In this document: positions 18,457-28,890 of the stretch, piece after piece
How the letters are laid out: every line of letters starts with the position of its first letter
Numbering within the stretch: the stretch's first letter is position 1
Virus record (IMG/VR): IMGVR_UViG_3300032289_000612
Span: 1 to 43,256 of that record
Strand: one strand, 5' to 3'
DNA length: 43,256 nt
From: a virus
Lineage: Duplodnaviria > Caudoviricetes
Position numbers and translations under genes: made by a program
The notes under the pieces: generated by a model
The model's input: the letters and a program-made list of their open reading frames with translations, nothing else
Told to the model about the DNA's origin: nothing
The model's database searches: none

Positions 18457-18478
18457 TGTCAGACCCCCCCTGTAGAGT
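18457..18478 (+). promoter_or_regulatory. Early promoter, TGTCAG-N10-TAGAGT
   Basis: Copy 1 of 13; followed by an A-rich leader and GAAAGGAG SD. Confidence 0.75.
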
Positions 18479-18524
18479 AAAGTTATAGAAAGTAAGAAAC
18501 ACTTACTAAAGAAAGGAGTTCTAA

Positions 18525-18662
18525 ATGAACTCAATACATGAGAATAGAAACTCTCTAGAAAGCAGAGAGCAACTCTTAGCACGACTAGGAGACGCTATCT
18601 GTTCAGAGTGTGGATGGCTATCTATCCACAAAGATGTGTGTTCTAAATCACACGCTAACTAA
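18525..18662 (+). CDS. Early microprotein (45 aa, CSEC...H...C)
   Basis: Manual translation; strong SD. Confidence 0.7.
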   Translation: MNSIHENRNSLESREQLLARLGDAICSECGWLSIHKDVCSKSHAN

Positions 18663-18680
18663 TAGCGTATCTCCCCAATT

Positions 18681-18702
18681 TGTCAGACCTATACCCTAGT
18701 AT
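18681..18702 (+). promoter_or_regulatory. Early promoter, TGTCAG-N10-TAGTAT
   Basis: Copy 2 of 13. Confidence 0.75.
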
Positions 18703-18739
18703 TATCACCATAAGAAACTAACAGAAAGAAGAACAGTAA

Positions 18740-18883
18740 ATGACACTAGATGAATTCAGAGAATACCAGCAAGCCCAATACGCTAAACAGCGTGAGGCTA
18801 ACAAGGCTAAGATAGAGGCTATGTTCTCTACTACTAACCGCTCTCTAAATAACGATTACCTACTAGCGAAAGAAGAAAACTAA
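18740..18883 (+). CDS. Early microprotein (47 aa)
   Basis: Manual translation MTLDEFREYQ...; TAATG coupling to the next gene. Confidence 0.7.
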   Translation: MTLDEFREYQQAQYAKQREANKAKIEAMFSTTNRSLNNDYLLAKEEN

Positions 18884-19050
18884 TGACTATCACTTACTCA
18901 ATTTGGCAAGGCTCTCGCCTACTATCTATCGACAATGTAGCGAATGAGGTAAAGGCTATTGACCACCTAATCGCATCACTTAACGATAGCGAACTAGGAA
19001 AGAAACTAAAGTTCTCCGCTAACATTCAAAAGATTGAGGTAGGTAAGTAA
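18883..19050 (+). CDS. Early microprotein (55 aa)
   Basis: Manual translation MTITYSIWQG... Confidence 0.7.
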   Translation: MTITYSIWQGSRLLSIDNVANEVKAIDHLIASLNDSELGKKLKFSANIQKIEVGK

Positions 19051-19236
19051 ATGACTAAATGGGATACTATTCAAGCAGATGTTGCAGACCAATACGCACA
19101 CCTAGATGAAGAAGAGGCACTTATGGAATGGTTAGGAGAAGAGGACGACATGTTTGGATTTACTAAGGCTATTGAGATTGACCACTTAACAGATGAACAA
19201 CTAGATGAAGTGTTTAACATGTTTGGAGATAAGTAA
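19051..19236 (+). CDS. Early acidic microprotein
   Basis: 61 aa, very D/E rich. Confidence 0.7.
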   Translation: MTKWDTIQADVADQYAHLDEEEALMEWLGEEDDMFGFTKAIEIDHLTDEQLDEVFNMFGDK

Positions 19237-19391
19237 TGATTACTAGTGGAGTACAACTACAACTAAATGACTATGGTTTAGAGTTTGATAGTTTCTTAGG
19301 GGCTATCTATTTACCTTGGCATAGTATTGCTATTGCTACCGCCGTCCTAATTGCATACAAGATCTACAAGGTAAGGCGAGACAAATGGTAG
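19236..19391 (+). CDS. Early membrane microprotein (51 aa)
   Basis: Manual translation; one TM helix followed by a basic tail. Confidence 0.6.
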   Translation: MITSGVQLQLNDYGLEFDSFLGAIYLPWHSIAIATAVLIAYKIYKVRRDKW

Positions 19392-19495
19392 TGATACTAT
19401 GCGCCATGATAGGCTTTGGTGTGGCGTATCTCATAGCTAACTAACGGCGTGTCCCCTTGACATTAGGGGGATCCGCCCCTATCTTTTGTGGGGGC

Positions 19496-19525
19496 TGTGG
19501 ATAACTTAAGAAGATCTGTGGAAAA
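19496..19525 (-). promoter_or_regulatory. Pair of DnaA boxes 21 bp apart
   Basis: TGTGGATAA (19496) and TGTGGAAAA (19517). Confidence 0.55.
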
Positions 19526-19537
19526 CCCCTGGAATTT

Positions 19538-19553
19538 TGTGAGATTTATCACA
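19538..19553. promoter_or_regulatory. CRP/GlxR-type palindrome
   Basis: TGTGA-GATTTA-TCACA. Confidence 0.7.
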
Positions 19554-19602
19554 TGTCTTGAGCGTCTCACATTGTGAAATTACTCGCTAGTAATTAGATA
19601 AA

Positions 19603-19624
19603 TGTCAGACCCCTCGTGTATAAT
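19603..19624 (+). promoter_or_regulatory. Early promoter, TGTCAG-N10-TATAAT
   Basis: Copy 3 of 13. Confidence 0.8.
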
Positions 19625-19658
19625 TCCATACATAACAACAAACGAAAGGTGACAACTA

Positions 19659-19868
19659 ATGTCAGCAAGAACTCTATCTATCCCGTCCCTACTAGTAGGA
19701 AAACACTATCGCTCACATTCTCGAAATGATGAGGGAACTATCGTTCATGCTGAAAAGCGTGACGGCATTTGGTACGGTGAAGGGCTTGAAGCCTATGTCG
19801 TACAGGTTAGCCCAACTCATGGCATAAATGATTTTTGGGCTACTGTTGCGGTTAAGGTGTCTGACTAA
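19659..19868 (+). CDS. Early hypothetical protein (SH3-like beta pattern)
   Basis: 69 aa; AACGAAAGG leader. Confidence 0.7.
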   Translation: MSARTLSIPSLLVGKHYRSHSRNDEGTIVHAEKRDGIWYGEGLEAYVVQVSPTHGINDFWATVAVKVSD

Positions 19869-19870
19869 TT

Positions 19871-19892
19871 TGTCAGACCCTTACGCTATAAT
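19871..19892 (+). promoter_or_regulatory. Early promoter, TGTCAG-N10-TATAAT
   Basis: Copy 4 of 13. Confidence 0.8.
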
Positions 19893-19926
19893 TTCAACCA
19901 TAACAACAACGAAAGGAAAACTAATA

Positions 19927-20070
19927 ATGGGAAACATTCTAGATGAACTAACTAATGTAACCGCTATCGAATGTGATGATTGCGGTGGTGCTGGATTTAT
20001 TTTCTTTGGCGATAACTATGATTTCGACATTGAACCTTGCGATTGCGTAATAGATGAGGAGTTAATTTAA
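19927..20070 (+). CDS. Early Zn-binding microprotein (CDDCGGAG...CDC)
   Basis: Start moved to MGNIL after the SD. Confidence 0.7.
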   Translation: MGNILDELTNVTAIECDDCGGAGFIFFGDNYDFDIEPCDCVIDEELI

Positions 20071-20273
20071 TGTACAGAGTTACTTGTGCCTATGATGGTT
20101 TTACACCACACTTTGCAGTTGAATTTGATAATGCGTTAGATGCTGTTAATTCTTACCGCAGTTTTATAGATTGGGGATTTGCTAATGAATACTCAACTGT
20201 AAATCTGTCAGAGCCTAATGGTAAAATGCATACCAAAACACTATACAGAACAGGAATGGTATCAGTTAAATGA
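20070..20273 (+). CDS. Early hypothetical protein
   Basis: 67 aa, coupled to neighbours. Confidence 0.7.
   Translation: MYRVTCAYDGFTPHFAVEFDNALDAVNSYRSFIDWGFANEYSTVNLSEPNGKMHTKTLYRTGMVSVK
20206..20227 (+). promoter_or_regulatory. Intragenic early promoter, TGTCAG-N10-TAAAAT
   Basis: Copy 5 of 13, inside a CDS. Confidence 0.55.
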
Positions 20274-20461
20274 TGACAAGAAAAGATTATGTGGCAGTAG
20301 CAGAAATTCTAAAGTTTGCTAGCGATAAATCTCATCCCGCTTTATTTTCTAAAATCGTAAATGATTTTGCTGTGATGTTTGCACAAGATAATCCACGATT
20401 TGATGTAAATCGTTTTCATGAAGCCAGTGGATACAATGTTCCAAAATTCACTACGAGATAA
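20270..20461 (+). CDS. Early hypothetical protein (TRKDY...DNPRFD family)
   Basis: 63 aa. Confidence 0.75.
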   Translation: MMTRKDYVAVAEILKFASDKSHPALFSKIVNDFAVMFAQDNPRFDVNRFHEASGYNVPKFTTR

Positions 20462-20570
20462 AGTAAAACGCATACAGGAATTGCGTCGCAGTAATGCGGC
20501 GCAACCTGTACGCAATAAAAAAAAATACACACGTAAAATAAAACATAAAAAGGATTCTGATCATGATTGA
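20436..20570 (+). CDS. Basic microprotein (44 aa, ...RNKKKYTRKIKHKK)
   Basis: Manual translation. Confidence 0.6.
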   Translation: MFQNSLRDKVKRIQELRRSNAAQPVRNKKKYTRKIKHKKDSDHD

Positions 20571-20655
20571 TTTGATTGCAACAATTATTTCTGTAATTGG
20601 TTTTGGAATTTTAGTAGCGCCATTTTATATCGCATTTAAAATATTTAAAGGTTGA
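20563..20655 (+). CDS. 30-aa membrane microprotein
   Basis: Manual translation MIDLIATIISVIGFGILVAPFYIAFKIFKG; AAGGA SD. Confidence 0.55.
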   Translation: MIDLIATIISVIGFGILVAPFYIAFKIFKG

Positions 20656-20730
20656 CAAAACTGCTAAGCTGCCCCCAAAAACGTGGGGGCAAAACTTCGC
20701 TTACGGCAAGCACCAAAACACCCTGGAAAT

Positions 20731-20746
20731 TGTGAGGTTTATCACA
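20731..20746. promoter_or_regulatory. CRP/GlxR-type palindrome
   Basis: TGTGA-GGTTTA-TCACA. Confidence 0.7.
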
Positions 20747-20773
20747 AAAGTTATGCGTAAATGAATTAGGTTA

Positions 20774-20795
20774 TGTCAGTGGCCTATGCTAAAAT
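20774..20795 (+). promoter_or_regulatory. Early promoter, TGTCAG-N10-TAAAAT
   Basis: Copy 6 of 13. Confidence 0.8.
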
Positions 20796-20824
20796 ACTCT
20801 TATCCAACCAACGAAAGGCAAAAA

Positions 20825-21028
20825 ATGCTAGTAGAACACAATCTAAAGTTTGTAACAGAGTTTGCAGACAATCACCCAGTAACGGCACAAATACTTAACA
20901 TGGACGAGAGTACTCGTATCTTTATGCTAGAGTCAATGCTAAAAGATTTAATTGCACCCCGCCTGCAACCAATTCTTGATGAGATTAACCTTAACGGGTC
21001 CTATGCAATTCTTAAGGTGGCAGAATAA
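20825..21028 (+). CDS. Early hypothetical protein
   Basis: Start moved to MLVEH after the SD. Confidence 0.7.
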   Translation: MLVEHNLKFVTEFADNHPVTAQILNMDESTRIFMLESMLKDLIAPRLQPILDEINLNGSYAILKVAE

Positions 21029-21304
21029 ATGGGATACTCAACAGCACAAGCACTTGTAGATGATTTATCACTAGAGGCAGGACTTGCTTATCACTTACAG
21101 GGTAATCATTACCCACCAGTTCCCGTCTCAATGGTGCAACCTTGCATAGATGCTATAGATGCGTTCTATGATGAGGAGTATAGTAGAGAAATTAATCTGC
21201 CTGAAGGTATCACTTGGAGAGGCCAGACTTCATGCCCAGCGTCTGCAATAGTAGATGCTCACCACTTAGATGCTTGGCTAGTACAGGAGGACTATGATGA
21301 GTAA
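21029..21304 (+). CDS. Early hypothetical protein (HLxGNHYPPVP family)
   Basis: 91 aa. Confidence 0.75.
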   Translation: MGYSTAQALVDDLSLEAGLAYHLQGNHYPPVPVSMVQPCIDAIDAFYDEEYSREINLPEGITWRGQTSCPASAIVDAHHLDAWLVQEDYDE

Positions 21305-21437
21305 TCTTTATTCTATCTTATCTGAGTGGTATCCTGATGGAAATTACAGCGAAGCTGAATTGTGGGACGCCGTTGCTGAGTCTGAAGGCGTAGATGTCTA
21401 TTCAATTATGGACGGCGATCTAACAGAATACTTGTGA
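21297..21437 (+). CDS. Early acidic microprotein (46 aa)
   Basis: Manual translation; GGAGG SD. Confidence 0.65.
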   Translation: MSNLYSILSEWYPDGNYSEAELWDAVAESEGVDVYSIMDGDLTEYL

Positions 21438-21448
21438 GGCAACTCACA
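21433..21448. promoter_or_regulatory. CRP/GlxR-type palindrome
   Basis: TGTGA-GGCAAC-TCACA. Confidence 0.7.
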
Positions 21449-21464
21449 CCAGGGGCTTGATAAA

Positions 21465-21486
21465 TGTCAGACCCTAATGCTACAAT
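21465..21486 (+). promoter_or_regulatory. Early promoter, TGTCAG-N10-TACAAT
   Basis: Copy 7 of 13. Confidence 0.8.
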
Positions 21487-21512
21487 AACACCCTAAACAG
21501 AAAGGAAGCAAA

Positions 21513-21689
21513 ATGACAGTAAATGGATACACTTACAAGGTTGGCGATTTATTCACCACTCTAAAGTCAAAGAAAACTGGAGTAATCAAGGAGATTATTC
21601 CTAACGCATCTGGCTCGGTGCGTGTGCTACTGGAAATGCCAACAAAGGAAACTCGTTGGACAACAGTTAGCAACGCAAACCTAGTATAA
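21513..21689 (+). CDS. Early microprotein (58 aa, YKVGDLF... SH3/KOW-like)
   Basis: Manual translation; GAAAGGA SD. Confidence 0.75.
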   Translation: MTVNGYTYKVGDLFTTLKSKKTGVIKEIIPNASGSVRVLLEMPTKETRWTTVSNANLV

Positions 21690-21711
21690 GGAAGTGGAGG
21701 GGTCGCAGAAA

Positions 21712-21733
21712 TGTCAGACCCCTCCGCTATAAT
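21712..21733 (+). promoter_or_regulatory. Early promoter, TGTCAG-N10-TATAAT
   Basis: Copy 8 of 13; embedded in the GGAGGGGTC/GACCCCTCC inverted repeat. Confidence 0.8.
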
Positions 21734-21769
21734 ACAACTAACCAAACCAACTAACGAAAGAGGAAACAA

Positions 21770-22192
21770 ATGGCTAGAGGAAAAGCAATCAGCGTTAAAA
21801 TCGCAACACCTAAAATCATCAAGGCACTAGAAACTCGCTTAGCGAAACTAGAACTTGATTGGACTAATCAAGAAAGCAACGAAGCAAAGTATGAAAAGTT
21901 ACGCAAGGCTTGGCAGAAAGAGATTTCTGACTACGCTATTGCCAACATCAAGAAGGCAGAAAACTTCCGTACCAACTATCGTTCATGGAACAATACTCTC
22001 AACATTGACTATGACCTAACAGTATCAGAGAAGGACTTGCCTAAAGAGCCTGAGAAGGACTACGAAGTTCTCCATCGCCACTCTTATTCAGAGATGAAGC
22101 AGGAACTAGAAAACGCAATCCGTATTCTCAAAATGACAGATGAGGAAACAGTTTCCACATCAACATACAACGCAGTAGCGCAGTATCTATAA
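21770..22192 (+). CDS. Early helical hypothetical protein
   Basis: 140 aa. Confidence 0.8.
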   Translation: MARGKAISVKIATPKIIKALETRLAKLELDWTNQESNEAKYEKLRKAWQKEISDYAIANIKKAENFRTNYRSWNNTLNIDYDLTVSEKDLPKEPEKDYEVLHRHSYSEMKQELENAIRILKMTDEETVSTSTYNAVAQYL

Positions 22193-22208
22193 TTCCTAAT
22201 AAGGAAAA

Positions 22209-22250
22209 TGTCCTGAGCATGACAACTAAAACTGCTCACACCTTCGGGTG
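22209..22250 (+). ncRNA. Pseudoknot + UNCG hairpin motif, copy 1
   Basis: TGTC-CTGAGCAT-GACA...AAAAC-TGCTCA-CACC(TTCG)GGTG. Confidence 0.65.
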
Positions 22251-22273
22251 TCCCTACTAACAAAGGTAATAAA

Positions 22274-22537
22274 ATGCGTAATCGTTTTAGAATTGAAATC
22301 TATGACGCTAACAAACTAAATGATTTAACTATCTACTCTGAGCAAGGCGTTGATAAGGAATACTTAACTGAATTAGTATTTTCTAATCTCCGCCGCTTTA
22401 ATGGTAAAGTAAGTGCTTATGTAGTTGATACGTTAAAGAAAAAGAAAACAACTGCAATGTTTATTAACGAAGACATTGTAAATAAAGTAAATAACAAAAC
22501 AAAAGTTATTACTGCTAAAGAGTTACACTTAGCATAG
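22274..22537 (+). CDS. Early hypothetical protein
   Basis: 87 aa. Confidence 0.75.
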   Translation: MRNRFRIEIYDANKLNDLTIYSEQGVDKEYLTELVFSNLRRFNGKVSAYVVDTLKKKKTTAMFINEDIVNKVNNKTKVITAKELHLA

Positions 22538-22543
22538 CACGTT

Positions 22544-22568
22544 GGGGCGGGACCTTTCTCCCCGCCCC
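22544..22568 (+). terminator. GC-rich hairpin after the gene
   Basis: GGGGCGGG-N9-CCCGCCCC; no U tract. Confidence 0.5.
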
Positions 22569-22593
22569 AGCTGCTGCCCCCATAGTTGCGGGG

Positions 22594-22623
22594 TTATCCA
22601 CAGCCTTACGGCAGTTATCCACA
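22594..22623 (+). promoter_or_regulatory. Pair of perfect DnaA boxes 21 bp apart
   Basis: TTATCCACA at 22594 and 22615. Confidence 0.65.
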
Positions 22624-22637
22624 ATGCCCTGAAAATT

Positions 22638-22653
22638 TGTGAGAATGATCACA
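22638..22653. promoter_or_regulatory. CRP/GlxR-type palindrome
   Basis: TGTGA-GAATGA-TCACA. Confidence 0.7.
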
Positions 22654-22690
22654 CCAAATTTGTCGACATAAGACTATCTAATCTTGTTAA

Positions 22691-22712
22691 TGTCAGCCTC
22701 CTATGTTATACT
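22691..22712 (+). promoter_or_regulatory. Early promoter, TGTCAG-N10-TATACT
   Basis: Copy 9 of 13. Confidence 0.8.
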
Positions 22713-22743
22713 CAGTTTAACAACCAATCGAAAGGAAATAAAA

Positions 22744-23748
22744 ATGGCTCATAATCTCGAAATGGAAAACGGCGAAGTTGCATTCGCTTTGCGTGGCGCA
22801 CCTGCATGGCACAATCTTGCAAATCGCATCTTTGCACAAGATGAGGAAGTTACAACGGCAACAATGCTTGAAGAAGCAAAGTTGGCAAATTGGAATGTTC
22901 GCTTATCTCCAATCACAAATCACATTGACGAATCATGGAATGATGTTTCAAATGCATCTTTGGTTATTCGTGACAACCCATTCAATAAGGGGACAGATGT
23001 TCTTGCTACTGTTGGCAAGCGATACAAGCCTGTACAAAATGAAGAATTGTTTGCATTTGCAGATGCAATTCATGATGCTAATGCAGACTGTCGCTGGGAA
23101 TCTGCTGGCTCATTGCGTAGCGGTAAAGTTGTATTTGGCACAGTGGACATTCCCCGCACAATGGTGCTTGACCCACAAGGTGCAAATGACGAAACCAAAT
23201 TGTATTTGATCGTTTGGACTTCACATGACGGCTCAGTTGCTGTTCAGGCAGCCGTTACTCCTGTTCGTGTTGTTTGCCAAAACACATTGAACCTTGCAAT
23301 GAAGAATGCTAAGCAATCTTTCAAGATTCGTCACACACAATCTGTTGAAGGTCGCATTCAGGTTGCTCGTGAAACTCTTGGACTTGCTCTAGGATACTTT
23401 GATGAATTTGAAAAAGAAGCGCAGGCTCTTTATTCTCAGTCAATTACTGATGCACAATTTTCACAGTTGATTCGCACAATCTATCCTAAGCCTGAGAAAG
23501 ATACAAAGGGCGCATTGACTAAGTGGGAAAACAAAGTTGTGTTGCTTGATGATTTGTATCATAACTCACCAACCAACTCTACAATCAAGGGCACAAAGTG
23601 GGGTGCGTTTAATGCGCTTACTGAGCGTTTGGATTACTACCGCACAGCCCGTGGCAATTCTGAATCACTAATGGCGGGCGCATCAGGATTTGACCCTGTT
23701 CTAACTGCTGAGAAAAACAAAATCAAGAAATTGGTTTCTGCTTTCTAA
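22744..23748 (+). CDS. DUF932 (phage/plasmid-like) family protein
   Basis: Start at MAHNLE; PAWH, Y.PVQN, ESAGSL, SHDGS, TPVRVVCQNTL, IRHT, GTKWGAFNALTE motifs. Confidence 0.88.
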   Translation: MAHNLEMENGEVAFALRGAPAWHNLANRIFAQDEEVTTATMLEEAKLANWNVRLSPITNHIDESWNDVSNASLVIRDNPFNKGTDVLATVGKRYKPVQNEELFAFADAIHDANADCRWESAGSLRSGKVVFGTVDIPRTMVLDPQGANDETKLYLIVWTSHDGSVAVQAAVTPVRVVCQNTLNLAMKNAKQSFKIRHTQSVEGRIQVARETLGLALGYFDEFEKEAQALYSQSITDAQFSQLIRTIYPKPEKDTKGALTKWENKVVLLDDLYHNSPTNSTIKGTKWGAFNALTERLDYYRTARGNSESLMAGASGFDPVLTAEKNKIKKLVSAF

Positions 23749-23754
23749 TAAATA

Positions 23755-23793
23755 AAATCCTGAGCATGATTTAAAACTGCTCACGCTACGGCG
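23755..23793 (+). ncRNA. Pseudoknot + UNCG hairpin motif, copy 2
   Basis: AAATC-CTGAGCAT-GATTT-AAAAC-TGCTCA-CGC(TACG)GCG. Confidence 0.65.
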
Positions 23794-23891
23794 TTTTGAT
23801 TTGACAAAGCTGCAGAGATGCCCCCAATTTTGAAGGCGGCGGGATCATGTTACGGACAATATAAAAAAAGCCCTGAAAAACTGTTGACATT

Positions 23892-23913
23892 TGTCAGTGG
23901 CTACCCCTATAAT
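23892..23913 (+). promoter_or_regulatory. Early promoter, TGTCAG-N10-TATAAT (also TTGACA at 18-bp spacing)
   Basis: Copy 10 of 13. Confidence 0.82.
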
Positions 23914-23941
23914 AATGGCATCAACCAACGAAAGGAACAAT

Positions 23942-24595
23942 ATGCCAAACTGGGTATATAACGGATTAACTGTAGAAGGTAATCCAGATTCTGTAAAGAA
24001 AATGATGGCTCAATTAAATAAGCCATTTACACAAACACATGACTCATGGGATGTCAGCACTAATACATTCATGAAGAAGAATACTCTATATGCAGAGCCT
24101 ATCTTTGCATTTCACAATATCTATAACTATGTAGATGCAGGTATTAGTGAGGATGTATATCTTTCACAACCCGACCATTCCATCCCAATTCAAGAAGCAA
24201 TGAAGTGTCTTACTAATGATTGGTATAACTTTAATTGCCGTGAATGGGGAACAAAGTGGGATGTTGCCGTATCTGTAGGTGATAAGTATCCTGATACTAC
24301 AGTTGAAGATACTGCTAATGGCGATAACCATGTTGTGCATTACAACTTTAATACTGCTTGGTCTCGTCCAATGGGTGCATTAACTAAACTGTCTGCACAA
24401 TACCCTGACTTACTATTTACTTTATCATATGAGGAGGAAACAGGCTGGGGTGGGGAACTAGAAATTCTTCGTGGTGTAGTTATCTCAGAATCAGAATATG
24501 ACAACATGTGTCGTGAATGTGATGGCACAGATTGTGTTGAATATAATGATGAGAAGGGCGTAGACATATGCCAGAAGTGTGGGTATGAATCATGA
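23942..24595 (+). CDS. YubB/DUF1281-like ferredoxin-fold protein
   Basis: MPNW.YN, WY...WGTKWD, FNTAWS.P, YEEETG motifs; C-terminal CxxC...CxxC. Confidence 0.8.
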   Translation: MPNWVYNGLTVEGNPDSVKKMMAQLNKPFTQTHDSWDVSTNTFMKKNTLYAEPIFAFHNIYNYVDAGISEDVYLSQPDHSIPIQEAMKCLTNDWYNFNCREWGTKWDVAVSVGDKYPDTTVEDTANGDNHVVHYNFNTAWSRPMGALTKLSAQYPDLLFTLSYEEETGWGGELEILRGVVISESEYDNMCRECDGTDCVEYNDEKGVDICQKCGYES

Positions 24596-25206
24596 CAGAT
24601 TTAGTCTCATCTAAATATACATTTGTTTGCGATCCAAATGAATGTGATTCTTTAATCGAACTAACATCATCAGATGGATTTGGATTCCCATCTGGTGTGA
24701 CGGAGCTCACATGTCCATGTGGCCGTAAAACTACATTATTGTCAGTGGAGCATGCTACACTACCAACAACAAACCAAACGAAAGAGGAAAAAATGGAAAC
24801 AACAACAGATAACCACTACATGACAAGAGAATTTCTTGAGTCACAGTTAGTAGAAAACAAGGCACGTATCACACAGTTGGAAGAACATGTACAACGTGTG
24901 ACTCAGCGTGACTTCAGCACATCTGCAGAATTAAACAAGATGCGTGACAACATGAAAGAATTTACATTAGAAGCATTAGATGATGATTCTATTTCAGAAA
25001 GTCAAGCAGAGGAGATTGCAAGCATCTGTGGATTCGAACTAACAAACGAGTTTGAACTAGAAGTTACAGTTATGTATTCAATTACAGTTAATGCTCGTGA
25101 TGAAGAGTCTGCACATAACTTAATTCATGATATTGATTTTGATTCTGTATCTTATCCTGAAGGTGTAGATTATTTATCATCATCTGTAGATAGAATTGAG
25201 GGTTAA
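24592..25206 (+). CDS. Hypothetical protein with internal second start at 24793
   Basis: 204-aa frame; internal promoter + SD precede METTTDNH (24793). Confidence 0.7.
   Translation: MTDLVSSKYTFVCDPNECDSLIELTSSDGFGFPSGVTELTCPCGRKTTLLSVEHATLPTTNQTKEEKMETTTDNHYMTREFLESQLVENKARITQLEEHVQRVTQRDFSTSAELNKMRDNMKEFTLEALDDDSISESQAEEIASICGFELTNEFELEVTVMYSITVNARDEESAHNLIHDIDFDSVSYPEGVDYLSSSVDRIEG
24696..24711. promoter_or_regulatory. CRP/GlxR-type palindrome inside a CDS
   Basis: TGTGA-CGGAGC-TCACA. Confidence 0.6.
24740..24761 (+). promoter_or_regulatory. Intragenic early promoter, TGTCAG-N10-TACACT
   Basis: Copy 11 of 13; typical A/C leader and GAAAGAGG SD. Confidence 0.75.
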
Positions 25207-25418
25207 TGTATTTTGAACTTCGTGCACCAGACCAGTTGGCCATGGAGATGGCCTACTGGGATGCACAAATTACTGGCCTGGATCCTGAAGCAATGGATTC
25301 ATTGACATTCAACATTGGAACTGGTAGTATTGAGAAAGTAACACGACTTCGTGAAAAACATAACCTAGAACTAATTCATGAAAGCGATTCAGAACCAACG
25401 GGATATAGGAGAGATTAA
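25206..25418 (+). CDS. Hypothetical protein
   Basis: 70 aa. Confidence 0.7.
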   Translation: MYFELRAPDQLAMEMAYWDAQITGLDPEAMDSLTFNIGTGSIEKVTRLREKHNLELIHESDSEPTGYRRD

Positions 25419-25419
25419 A

Positions 25420-25569
25420 ATGGGCGACACATACCAAGATGGCTTTACAGATGGGGCACGCTGGGCTCGTGAGGAAATCACAGAGAAGTTGCGTGAAATT
25501 GATGTGATGGACATCGATTCTTGGTTACTAGATAAATTAGCAGACATGATTGAAGGTGGGCACCTATGA
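25420..25569 (+). CDS. Hypothetical protein
   Basis: Start at MGDTYQ after the GGAG SD. Confidence 0.65.
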   Translation: MGDTYQDGFTDGARWAREEITEKLREIDVMDIDSWLLDKLADMIEGGHL

Positions 25570-25775
25570 CCGAAGATCTAAATCGATGGATTGCTTGCGA
25601 TAAATGCGGCATTTCTGCCCAAGCTATGTGGTTAATTAAACTAGTTGAAGGTGAACTATATTTCTGTGGACACCACAAGAACAAATTCGAAGGGGCCCTA
25701 GACAAAGTGTCCTATGAGATGATAGAATTAAATAAAACCGAAGAAGTACCTACATTAGAAGAGGCGGAACTATAA
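25566..25775 (+). CDS. Zn-binding protein (CDKC...LYFCGHH), actinobacterial type
   Basis: 69 aa. Confidence 0.7.
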   Translation: MTEDLNRWIACDKCGISAQAMWLIKLVEGELYFCGHHKNKFEGALDKVSYEMIELNKTEEVPTLEEAEL

Positions 25776-26176
25776 TGGGAGACAGAGCAAACTTTGCATT
25801 CAAGCAATCAAACGGTGAAACAATTGTGTTGTACGGACACTGGGCTGGACACAACATGCTAGCAAATCTAGCAAGTGCTGTAGACACCGCCCGTGGACGT
25901 TGGGCAGATGAATCATATGCAACACGTATTTGTATTTCACAATTGGTTGGCGATGACTGGAATTCACAAACAGGCTGGGGCCTGCAGGTAAATTCAATTA
26001 GCGATAATGAACATAAGATTCCATTAATTGATTGGGCAACGCAAACGTTTAGTCTGCATGAGGAAGCGCCTTGGTCTGAGTCGACTGAGTACAAGGTCCG
26101 TGGGATGTTAGACATACCAATGTTTGAAATGTCCCTAGATAGTTTTGTAAAGAAATATTCACCAGCATTAGTTTAA
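25775..26176 (+). CDS. Hypothetical protein (MGDRA...LYGHW.G family)
   Basis: 133 aa. Confidence 0.75.
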   Translation: MGDRANFAFKQSNGETIVLYGHWAGHNMLANLASAVDTARGRWADESYATRICISQLVGDDWNSQTGWGLQVNSISDNEHKIPLIDWATQTFSLHEEAPWSESTEYKVRGMLDIPMFEMSLDSFVKKYSPALV

Positions 26177-26180
26177 ATAA

Positions 26181-26306
26181 GTAAAGGTGCCTCTATCAGT
26201 TGATTTATTAGCCAGGGGTTAAATAAAGCAGAGTTTTTACTTTCGTTGGTTACCTCTAGCAGCCTTAGTAAGAACCCCTGGATCTAATCATCCAGGGTTT
26301 TTTATT
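26181..26306 (+). ncRNA. Candidate trans-acting sRNA with anti-RBS loop, ending in an intrinsic terminator
   Basis: Outer stem AAGGTGC/GCAGCCTT; hairpin TTTATTAGCC/GGTTAAATAAA; AGAG/CTCT stem presenting CTTTCGTTGGTT (26240-26251); terminator CCCTGGAT/ATCCAGGG-TTTTTT. Confidence 0.65.
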
Positions 26307-26369
26307 GCCCGCAAAGACGGAGGGTAGCATAATCTTCTTACGAGATCAATATAAAATCCCCTGAAATTT

Positions 26370-26402
26370 TGTGAGATGCGCCACAATGTGGCGGGAATCA
26401 CA
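26370..26402. promoter_or_regulatory. Two tandem near-consensus CRP-type sites
   Basis: TGTGA-N6-CCACA and TGTGG-N6-TCACA. Confidence 0.55.
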
Positions 26403-26420
26403 CAGCTTTTCTATTCCATT

Positions 26421-26442
26421 TGTCAGTCCCCTAATATATAAT
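26421..26442 (+). promoter_or_regulatory. Early promoter, TGTCAG-N10-TATAAT, driving a leaderless gene
   Basis: Copy 12 of 13; ATG 6 nt after the -10. Confidence 0.8.
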
Positions 26443-26448
26443 AATCAC

Positions 26449-26595
26449 ATGAGAACAATTGATGAACTAGTAAATGAGATGTACATGGATAATGAACAAC
26501 ATCTTGAATATATGGAGAACATGAACGGTGGGGATTGCGATTGCAATATTCACACCACATTAAACACTATTGTAAAGTATTGGTGGGATGAATGA
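26449..26595 (+). CDS. Leaderless microprotein (48 aa, CDCNIH)
   Basis: Start at MRTIDE. Confidence 0.65.
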   Translation: MRTIDELVNEMYMDNEQHLEYMENMNGGDCDCNIHTTLNTIVKYWWDE

Positions 26596-26750
26596 TGTTA
26601 GGATATACATTAGATCAATTAGATGAAATGATTAGGGCTATCTGTCTTTCTAAGAAATCCGTCCCAAATACACAAATAAGAATTCATGCTGGATTAGATC
26701 AAGCAGAGGAATTTTTAAAGGGACTATGGGCGGAGGGTTATTTTGACTAA
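26592..26750 (+). CDS. Hypothetical protein (52 aa)
   Basis: Manual translation MMLGYTLDQL...GLWAEGYFD. Confidence 0.7.
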   Translation: MMLGYTLDQLDEMIRAICLSKKSVPNTQIRIHAGLDQAEEFLKGLWAEGYFD

Positions 26751-26958
26751 ATCATCTGTATTCCTTGCTTATATAAACTTACATCTAACTAGTTTAGAAC
26801 AGGATTTAGAAAAGCTACTTTATAATAAATCTGTTATATGGTCAGACGGGAACAATGATCAAGAGATGTATTTAAATGGACAGATATTCGCAACCAAGCA
26901 TTTATTGTCAGTGGCTACTGATATAATGAACTCTACTAACGAAAGGTTATATCGATGA
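26743..26958 (+). CDS. Hypothetical protein
   Basis: 71 aa, TTG start; 3' end carries a promoter. Confidence 0.6.
   Translation: MTKSSVFLAYINLHLTSLEQDLEKLLYNKSVIWSDGNNDQEMYLNGQIFATKHLLSVATDIMNSTNERLYR
26906..26927 (+). promoter_or_regulatory. Intragenic early promoter, TGTCAG-N10-TATAAT
   Basis: Copy 13 of 13. Confidence 0.78.
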
Positions 26959-28833: not shown

Positions 28834-28890
28834 TTATCCACATCCTTATCCACAGGGTGTGGATTTTTTGTGGATAAAATCTGTGGACAT
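28834..28890. promoter_or_regulatory. Cluster of DnaA boxes (origin-like or ejection-stop-like region)
   Basis: TTATCCACA at 28834 and 28846; TGTGGATAA at 28869; degenerate boxes at 28858 and 28882. Confidence 0.7.

Follow-up and report, generated by a model that had tools for sequence, protein, structure and literature searches.

A structured RNA family in lake phages and the predicted pairing of its loop with a tag shared by early-type leaders

Introduction

What is encoded between positions 26181 and 26306 of this virus fragment, and why does a loop in the predicted transcript mirror the ribosome-binding regions of genes lying elsewhere in the same genome? The window, here the entire IMG/VR record IMGVR_UViG_3300032289_000612, is a 43-kb virus fragment (43,256 nucleotides, 39% G+C) that encodes WhiB, an Lsr2-like protein, a ribonucleotide reductase and a DUF932 protein, from which we infer an actinobacterial host for this lake phage. 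The DUF932 protein, which has no solved relative, finds its top cultured matches in Streptomyces phages classed as Stanwilliamsviridae (~50-52% identity). A + strand block of small genes at ~16.3-28.6 kb, flanked by minus-strand gene blocks, surrounds the interval, and we call it early-type on the basis of gene layout and of the homologous terminal-repeat block of Streptomyces phages.

An initial annotation had read the interval as a structured small RNA repressing the whole early regulon through a single loop and thereby forming a negative-feedback timer. We find that the folded RNA is a real, uncatalogued RNA family. Its function we consider likely, with confidence that stops well short of certainty, to be that of a trans-acting RNA that pairs with tagged leaders and blocks ribosome loading on the tagged early mRNAs as a set. 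This reading builds on the covariation of the fold, the complementarity of loop and leaders, the position of the tag, and the way loop and tag are present or missing together from lineage to lineage.

Table 1. Positions of the RNA element, the leader tags and neighbouring features in the window
Feature	Position	Strand	Promoter	Gene start	Remarks
Predicted small RNA gene	26181..26306	+			three-way-junction core and intrinsic terminator; predicted ends
Conserved core	26186..26264	+			three-way junction, from covariation
Closing stem P0	26184-26187 with 26263-26266	+
P1	26190-26194 with 26214-26218	+			cap is a dispensable hairpin
Junction	26219-26227	+
Y-UAA-R motif	26219..26223	+			outer bases co-vary
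P4	26228-26233 with 26254-26260	+
P4 loop, predicted guide	26234..26253	+			26240-26247 is the conserved core complementary to AACGAAAG
Terminator-like hairpin and U-run	26276..26306	+			stem 26276-26297
133-aa gene (phrog_31860)	25775..26176	+			function not assigned; directly upstream of the RNA; usual neighbour, not obligate partner
Early-type gene block	18457..26927	+			13 promoter-like sites fitting the PafBC consensus tGTCgg(N10)tA(N3)T
8-mer AACGAAAG	19641, 19908, 20810, 21753, 23927, 24777, 26938	+
Leader tag, 8 nt	19641..19648	+	19603-19624	19659
Leader tag, 9 nt	19907..19915	+	19871-19892	19927
Leader tag, 12 nt exact	20806..20817	+	20774-20795	20825
Leader tag, 12 nt, one G-U	21749..21760	+	21712-21733	21770
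Leader tag, one-base bulge	22722..22734	+	22691-22712	22744	DUF932 gene
Leader tag, 12 nt exact	23923..23934	+	23892-23913	23942	DUF1281_C/Api92-like gene
Leader tag, one bulge	24772..24784	+	24740-24761	24793	operon towards the RNA
Leader tag, 11 nt, one G-U	26935..26945	+	26906-26927	26955

Fold and family of the RNA

The interval 26181-26306 is free of overlapping ORFs of at least 40 aa, in agreement with the initial annotation, which had described an ORF-free interval able to form an outer stem with two hairpins and ending in a terminator. The terminator-like stem and its + strand U-run are present (Table 1), and the conserved fold is likewise upheld, its architecture being refined from covariation to a three-way junction. 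Across 91 distinct sequences, 93.9% of cells are paired compared with 78.9% after shuffling, and the covariation score is 0.357 compared with 0.113 for shuffled alignments (0 of 500 shuffles as high) and at most 0.078 for slid controls. Both variable P1 positions are paired in 127 of 127 distinct cores, many of them as G-U, which fixes the + strand as that of the RNA. The outer bases of the Y-UAA-R motif, which we take to be a likely lone-pair triloop or T-loop-like tertiary motif, co-vary over the 127 cores (C-G in 72, U-A in 44, U-C in 11).

The core pattern was found at 74 of 75 loci located through the upstream protein, a set chosen independently of the RNA, the 75th carrying a variant; later sets were found by the pattern itself, so that their invariant columns are circular. 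By our estimate ~230 stored viral stretches match the pattern, and the window and each of 10 records contain one strong covariance-model copy. Pattern matches without proper stems (L232, L284, L287, L297-L299, L352, L353, L372 and L374) were judged by eye to be chance, and L352, L353, L372 and L374 were excluded from context and core counts. RNA-bearing phage fragments also occur in bacterial bins labelled Bacteroidia, Polynucleobacter and unclassified (L351, L354, L355), likely as mis-binned contigs.

Folded on its own, the window RNA reaches moderate significance only (z -2.08) with part of the loop hidden. Positions 26240-26243 are mostly paired in its ensemble (unpaired 0.02-0.12 at 37 °C), which counts against loop exposure, and the covariation fold lies only 0.7 kcal/mol above the minimum. 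Over 108 cores the 8-nt loop core is predicted to be 0.65-0.74 unpaired on average. The RNA is non-coding, conserved in structure and encoded away from its predicted targets, as trans-acting small RNAs are, and it offers an accessible conserved seed against several initiation regions, the window's own fold being only partly accessible.

Searches of Rfam 15, including C4, 6C, self-cleaving ribozymes and riboswitches (circularly permuted forms outside its scope), gave no match in the window at the gathering threshold, only chance-level matches around the RNA (E 1.1-4), and tRNAs only at eight loci that include loop-less and cultured members. Hammerhead, pistol, twister and HDV-like readings lack key conserved parts and were set apart by general descriptions only, and a pairing of junction UAAGUAAA with the U-rich side of type B loops was dropped, its alignment showing no compensatory change by eye. 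A cis-encoded antisense RNA of the sar or OOP type was rejected, the RNA lying on the same strand as its targets with matches of 8-12 nt at distances of up to 6.6 kb. In type III toxin-antitoxin systems the RNA consists of tandem repeats linked to the gene of a cognate nuclease; here, by contrast, the RNA is single-copy in the window and the 10 records and its neighbour gene varies by lineage. Neither the 133-aa neighbour nor DUF932 was retained as an obligate partner, given that neighbours vary and that one record (G011, 75% complete) lacks DUF932.

Promoters of the early-type gene block

The full promoter TGTCAG-N10-TAnnnT matches 14 times in the window compared with 0.61 expected, and 13 of the matches fall in 18457-26927; the bare TGTCAG is not enriched in the window (26 vs 23.7 expected), so that enrichment is limited to the full promoter. 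Five of the 13 promoter-like sites are without the leader tag described below (18457, 18681, 21465, 26421 and 20206, the last inside a gene). At 26421-26450 a PafBC-type promoter is followed by an ATG 7 nt after the -10, and the gene is apparently leaderless, in which case the RNA could not target it; leaderless starts are frequent in the loop-less G012 lineage. Related records hold 11-17 PafBC-type promoter-like sites each, and none was found in the examined stretches of cultured Streptomyces relatives. The sites fit the consensus of PafBC-dependent promoters, which the consulted part of one report describes for host DNA-damage genes (PMC8635444). By that consensus the promoters of the tagged transcripts are putative PafBC-type: the same type of site starts the target transcripts here, whereas its known role concerns host DNA-damage genes and its use by this phage is putative.

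Other DNA elements populate the block. Palindromes of the form TGTGA-N6-TCACA, presumably CRP/GlxR-like, occur at 19538, 20731, 21433, 22638, 24696, 26370 and 26387 (9 matches when one mismatch is tolerated, 2.3 expected); most lie upstream of early promoters, often preceded by a CCCTG(G/A)AA motif. TTATCCACA boxes, which we assume to be DnaA-like, lie at 19496, 22594, 22615 and 28834-28877 (7 vs 0.47 expected); the three clustered at 28834-28877, near the gene-block switch, mark a possible origin or genome end. A repeat, TCCTGAGCA...TAAAACTGCTCAC, is found at 22210-22240 and 23757-23785, in each case behind the stop codon of an early gene.

Complementarity between loop and leaders

The loop segment 26240-26251 reads CTTTCGTTGGTT, as annotated initially, and both exact copies of its reverse complement, at 20806-20817 and 23923-23934, are present, as are the further sites that had been listed with one wobble, one bulge or an 8-9 nt core (Table 1). 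With at most two mismatches allowed, the reverse complement has 11 matches compared with 3.6 expected, a number reached in 0 of 100 shuffles. The loop core CUUUCGUU is the reverse complement of AACGAAAG, an 8-mer that occurs seven times on the + strand and once, as the loop itself, on the minus strand, compared with 0.97 expected. All eight tags overlap the GAAAG(G) Shine-Dalgarno before the first start codon after a promoter, as had been proposed for TGTCAG transcripts. The extension of this pattern to the whole early regulon was too strong, the tag being present at 8 of the 13 promoter-like sites.

The early leaders also rank first among candidate targets, a check that the initial annotation had called for. 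When the 66 heuristically called start regions of the window were ranked, the top 11 duplexes all lay in the early block, and nine of them belonged to promoter-first genes (a count that includes 18740, which has no exact tag), whereas shuffled loops averaged 1.8 and never exceeded 5 in 300 trials. This ranking was used in place of a genome-wide duplex scan with stems, which was noisy and dominated by G-U-rich coding sites. Counting against the pairing, several tags offer only 8-9 bp of A/U-rich duplex (-11.5 to -14.6 kcal/mol). The alternative reading of the 12-mer as the ribosome-binding site of a minus-strand ORF, raised at the outset, is ruled out, since a start codon follows it in only 13 of 107 cores and in the window not at all.

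Equally, it is most improbable that the motif serves as a DNA operator or minus-strand decoy instead of an antisense loop. The terminator stem does score on the minus strand as well, and the early block contains many DNA boxes, but G-U pairs, promoters and U-runs indicate the + strand, and each genome has just one reversed copy, invariably in this loop.

The duplex covers GAAAG in the window leaders and the entire GAAAGGA in relatives, and lake phage leaders are short and A/C-rich. These features bear on an activating role, in which pairing would stabilise or activate the tagged mRNAs, for example by protecting a short 5' leader against nucleases. Such an arrangement might benefit a phage that has evolved a tag on its own genes, and a similar ATCGAAAGG starts three early transcripts each in Jay2Jay and Bmoc (Streptomyces BE phages), away from the Shine-Dalgarno. 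In the lake phages, however, the duplex lies over the Shine-Dalgarno core and the leaders hold no hairpin that pairing could open, and we regard activation as improbable.

Loop and tag across relatives

The initial annotation had made its proposal dependent on conservation of the loop in relatives, and the loop CTTTCG[TA]T is indeed carried by 109 of 127 distinct cores, on P4 stems of varying sequence. In related loci the 8-mer was counted 1013 times on the RNA strand vs 9 times on the opposite strand (126 non-identical loci, 1.78 Mb, partly overlapping relatives), and a start codon lies 3-11 nt behind it in 567 of 586 distinct contexts.

Could the loop be a generic anti-Shine-Dalgarno directed at host mRNAs, with the match to phage leaders a by-product of the shared Shine-Dalgarno? 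It contains CUUUC, the complement of the GAAAG core, and type B loops cover GAAAGGAA and reach 8.1 nt even on the leaders of a loop-less phage. Against this, the invariant GUU pairs with AAC upstream of the Shine-Dalgarno, which loop-less phages do not keep (AGAAAG), and genes on the opposite strand are almost never tagged (0-1 per record), so that we give this explanation very little credence.

Three lineages possess the scaffold without the anti-leader loop and thereby provide built-in natural controls: G001, with a G-rich loop; G013/L343/L344, with a tiny hairpin at the same place in the gene block; and G012/G008. Promoter leaders with ACGAAAG number 7/14 (window), 7/16, 8/14, 11/17 and 13/15 in loop-bearing records, compared with 1/15, 1/13, 0/11, 0/5, 0/11 and 0/12 in loop-less records (G012 and G013 counted over 40 kb each), where AGAAAG often takes the place of the tag. 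A DUF932 tree was built from 40 rows: loop-bearing loci (25 of 26 selected representatives and the window, which is counted with them), every loop-less locus that has the gene, and five cultured phages. In it G009, the record with 13/15, has the G013 group as its sister, and 26 loop-bearing rows share a single starred clade with G001. The contrast between loop and tag accordingly comprises two starred sister pairs, both as predicted, and one unplaced lineage; it is not statistically significant and depends on a quick single-gene tree of mosaic genomes.

Of the co-variation between loop and leaders that was to be checked, the presence or absence of the two is near all-or-none in the two sister contrasts, and the fine co-variation is not significant. 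An upstream C is found in 86/203 type A and 95/175 type C leaders vs 27/172 of type B, and a downstream GAA in 112/172 of type B vs 32/203 (A) and 16/175 (C); loop variants follow leader flanks in these counts, with only 3-4 independent pairs and no significance, and the leaders of type A phages are better matched by type B loops than by type A loops (8.8 vs 7.9 nt). Overall, comparative support for the predicted pairing with a phage-specific early-leader tag is good.

The clade-wide distribution of the 8-nt core also raises the possibility that pairing mainly strikes incoming related phages, as superinfection exclusion, and not the timing of the phage's own cycle, since the RNA of one phage would match the leaders of its relatives. 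RNA-based exclusion is known for STnc6030 and sas, according to the portion of the literature consulted (PMC12197685). A competitor could nevertheless escape by one base change, and all loop-bearing lineages examined retain the tag, its loss being confined to phages that lack the loop themselves; exclusion as the main role therefore seems to us a poor prospect.

For the other loops, those of G001 and G006-G008, no repeated target was found. The G-rich-loop variant of the scaffold stands directly upstream of a gene in L096:8001-8071 (G001), L408 and L415; one may speculate that its G-run pairs with C-rich loops of the kind found in host 6C RNA.

The scaffold beyond the lake phages

The scaffold recurs with other loops in 13 cultured Streptomyces phages (Stanwilliamsviridae). 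The lake-phage covariance model matches all 10 loci examined from BE-type Streptomyces phages (E 7e-7 to 0.017) and also Karimac and the Loccivirinae phages Comrade and Faust (E ~1e-6); these homologues were detected by the covariance model only, BLASTN of the RNA region and of the type B RNA giving no match among cultured phages. In BE phages the early terminal-repeat block ends with the RNA, which follows a TTGACA-type promoter; its P1 and junction sequences are nearly identical to those of lake members, and its P4 loop is a conserved GGUCGG. A 51-nt core lies 11 nt before the tRNA heading a 25-tRNA array in a 150-kb record (75% complete) of an apparently unrelated phage, which has neither DUF932 nor WhiB nor a PafBC-type block.

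No repeated leader target for the cultured-phage loop was found in Jay2Jay (120 of 133.5 kb) or in Comrade and Faust (~42-44 kb each), and the scaffold therefore has a function beyond the leader-pairing model. Given its occurrence with other loops in soil Streptomyces phages and at the tRNA array, the scaffold probably predates the guide, the anti-leader loop being an apparent later addition.

The scaffold may contribute stabilisation, protein binding or catalysis. The loop may act as guide and the scaffold as effector, by protein recruitment or catalysis, so that tagged mRNAs would be cut or degraded and not merely masked. The junction is conserved far beyond the need of passive display, it persists with a 4-nt P4 loop and before the tRNA array, and its spacing of one, 8 and 1-2 bases between helices resembles that of small ribozymes. 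On the other hand, Rfam returned no ribozyme match even for loop-less and cultured members, some junction bases that are invariant in lake phages are altered in Streptomyces phages, and no constant partner gene lies alongside; we consider cleavage or decay of the targets unlikely. A broader version, unlikely too, is that lake actinophages have equipped a portable three-way-junction effector, protein-recruiting or catalytic, with a guide loop and have evolved the matching address before their own host-sensing early genes. If it were true, the RNA would be a reprogrammable module and a phage-built RNA-guided regulon switch, the cultured Streptomyces phages would carry the same effector with another guide, and the family would be a candidate for what reads the unexplained start-associated motifs found in actinophages.

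Further elements were observed near these scaffolds. A second long hairpin-like element without an Rfam match lies just upstream of the minimal scaffold at the tRNA array (L342:9940-10000). In the early blocks of Jay2Jay and Bmoc (L356, L357) several early transcripts start with CATCGAAAGG and a hairpin, away from the Shine-Dalgarno, and the conserved 3' tail of the RNA, CCTTTCAAT, is a near complement of CATCGAAAGG with one mismatch. The predicted RNA 5' leader of Comrade and Faust (L455, L456) contains TTCGTT as well as a run, CCTTT(T)CT, that looks like an anti-Shine-Dalgarno, and in the early-type block of Comrade AAGCTT follows many hairpins.

Promoter, terminator and expression

A SigA-type -10 lies at most 110 nt upstream of the RNA in 117 of 140 loop-bearing contexts, 96 of which have the extended form, against a background of 156 in 3380 windows; a PafBC-type promoter lies within the same distance in 0 of 169 contexts. 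A terminator was recognised in 113 of the 140 loop-bearing contexts by a crude rule and is truly absent in some. Many relatives (L026-L073) carry an extra short hairpin between the -10 and the core, making the predicted transcript 30-45 nt longer at its 5' end. The canonical -10 is absent in the window and its nearest relatives, where the RNA is plausibly the 3' end of the 24740 operon, reached by read-through; it could also start from sigma-70-like sites at 25302 and 25699, the number of such sites being at chance level.

These observations leave the negative-feedback timer of the initial annotation unproven. Feedback is plausible for the clade of the window, in which the RNA has no canonical -10 and may depend on early-operon read-through; for most relatives a constitutive gate on leaky early transcripts fits better.

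One freshwater RNA library yielded a contig spanning 26171-26357, the sole listed one outside an acidic low-complexity stretch. It was found through the RNA region, runs past the terminator and carries no information on strand or ends, and we take it as a weak hint of discrete RNA expression. The RNA libraries each contain less than 1/10 of the window's words. Library X1 covers most of the window with contigs of up to 29.9 kb and may for that reason be DNA, and the RNA region is uncovered in libraries X6 and X7.

Discussion

In the reading we favour, a discrete RNA would be made from 26181-26306, its scaffold would stabilise it and display the P4 loop, and the loop would pair in trans with the leader tags in vivo, the duplex masking the Shine-Dalgarno (GAAAG; GAAAGGA in relatives) and repressing translation. 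The purpose may be a post-transcriptional gate or shut-off on the PafBC-type early block; acting before early expression the RNA would set a threshold, acting after it a timer. If confirmed, the recognition by a phage RNA of a single tag shared among several of the phage's own early mRNAs would represent an RNA route to early-gene control. Since cultured Streptomyces phages carry the scaffold as well, its expression, ends, partners and mutants can be studied in laboratory strains.

Several known systems resemble parts of this proposal. In T4, RegB and RegA shut off many early phage mRNAs post-transcriptionally through their ribosome-binding regions by means of protein effectors, whereas the reader predicted here is an RNA. 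The c4 antisense RNA of P1/P7 and the P4 CI RNA are phage-encoded multi-helix RNAs in which short loop segments pair with repeated sites in phage transcripts; each governs a single operon, for immunity or an antirepressor, in a temperate phage, compared with eight separate leaders of an early block here, and the Rfam C4 model gave no match at the gathering threshold or at E up to 5.

A literature search, in which few subscription papers were covered, returned no description of the window RNA or of a phage RNA reading a tag shared by its own early genes. The fold may be among the candidate viral structured RNAs of PMC10690425, although four of its supplementary files contain no match to the motif. 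The phage RNAs sar, OOP, aQ, sas, PreS and VpdS act by base pairing on translation or decay, and in the part of the source consulted (PMC12197685) they are cis-antisense to one gene, or Hfq-dependent and largely host-directed; none of those described there uses one tag to reach several early leaders of its own phage, in contrast to the eight leaders sharing one tag here.

The actinobacterial setting is shared by 6C, a structured RNA whose single-stranded loops pair with many mRNAs, reportedly without a chaperone, as far as the consulted sections describe it (PMC6486639). According to the same sections, 6C itself is host-encoded and uses two C-rich hairpin loops against heterogeneous targets (PMC6486639), whereas the present RNA is phage-encoded, combines one U-rich loop with a three-way junction, has a purpose-like shared tag and gives no Rfam 6C match. 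The tag, in turn, is reminiscent of the start-associated sequences of cluster K mycobacteriophages, short oriented motifs over the Shine-Dalgarno of many non-structural genes, with conserved bases that 16S rRNA cannot explain and an RNA or protein reader left open in the portion of that report consulted (PMC3203893). If the proposed pairing is true, it would provide a concrete answer to the question of what reads such conserved sequences. The two systems differ in that the start-associated sequences read GGGATAGGAGCCC and have no cognate RNA described in that portion of the report (PMC3203893), whereas here a candidate reader lies in the same genome as the tag.
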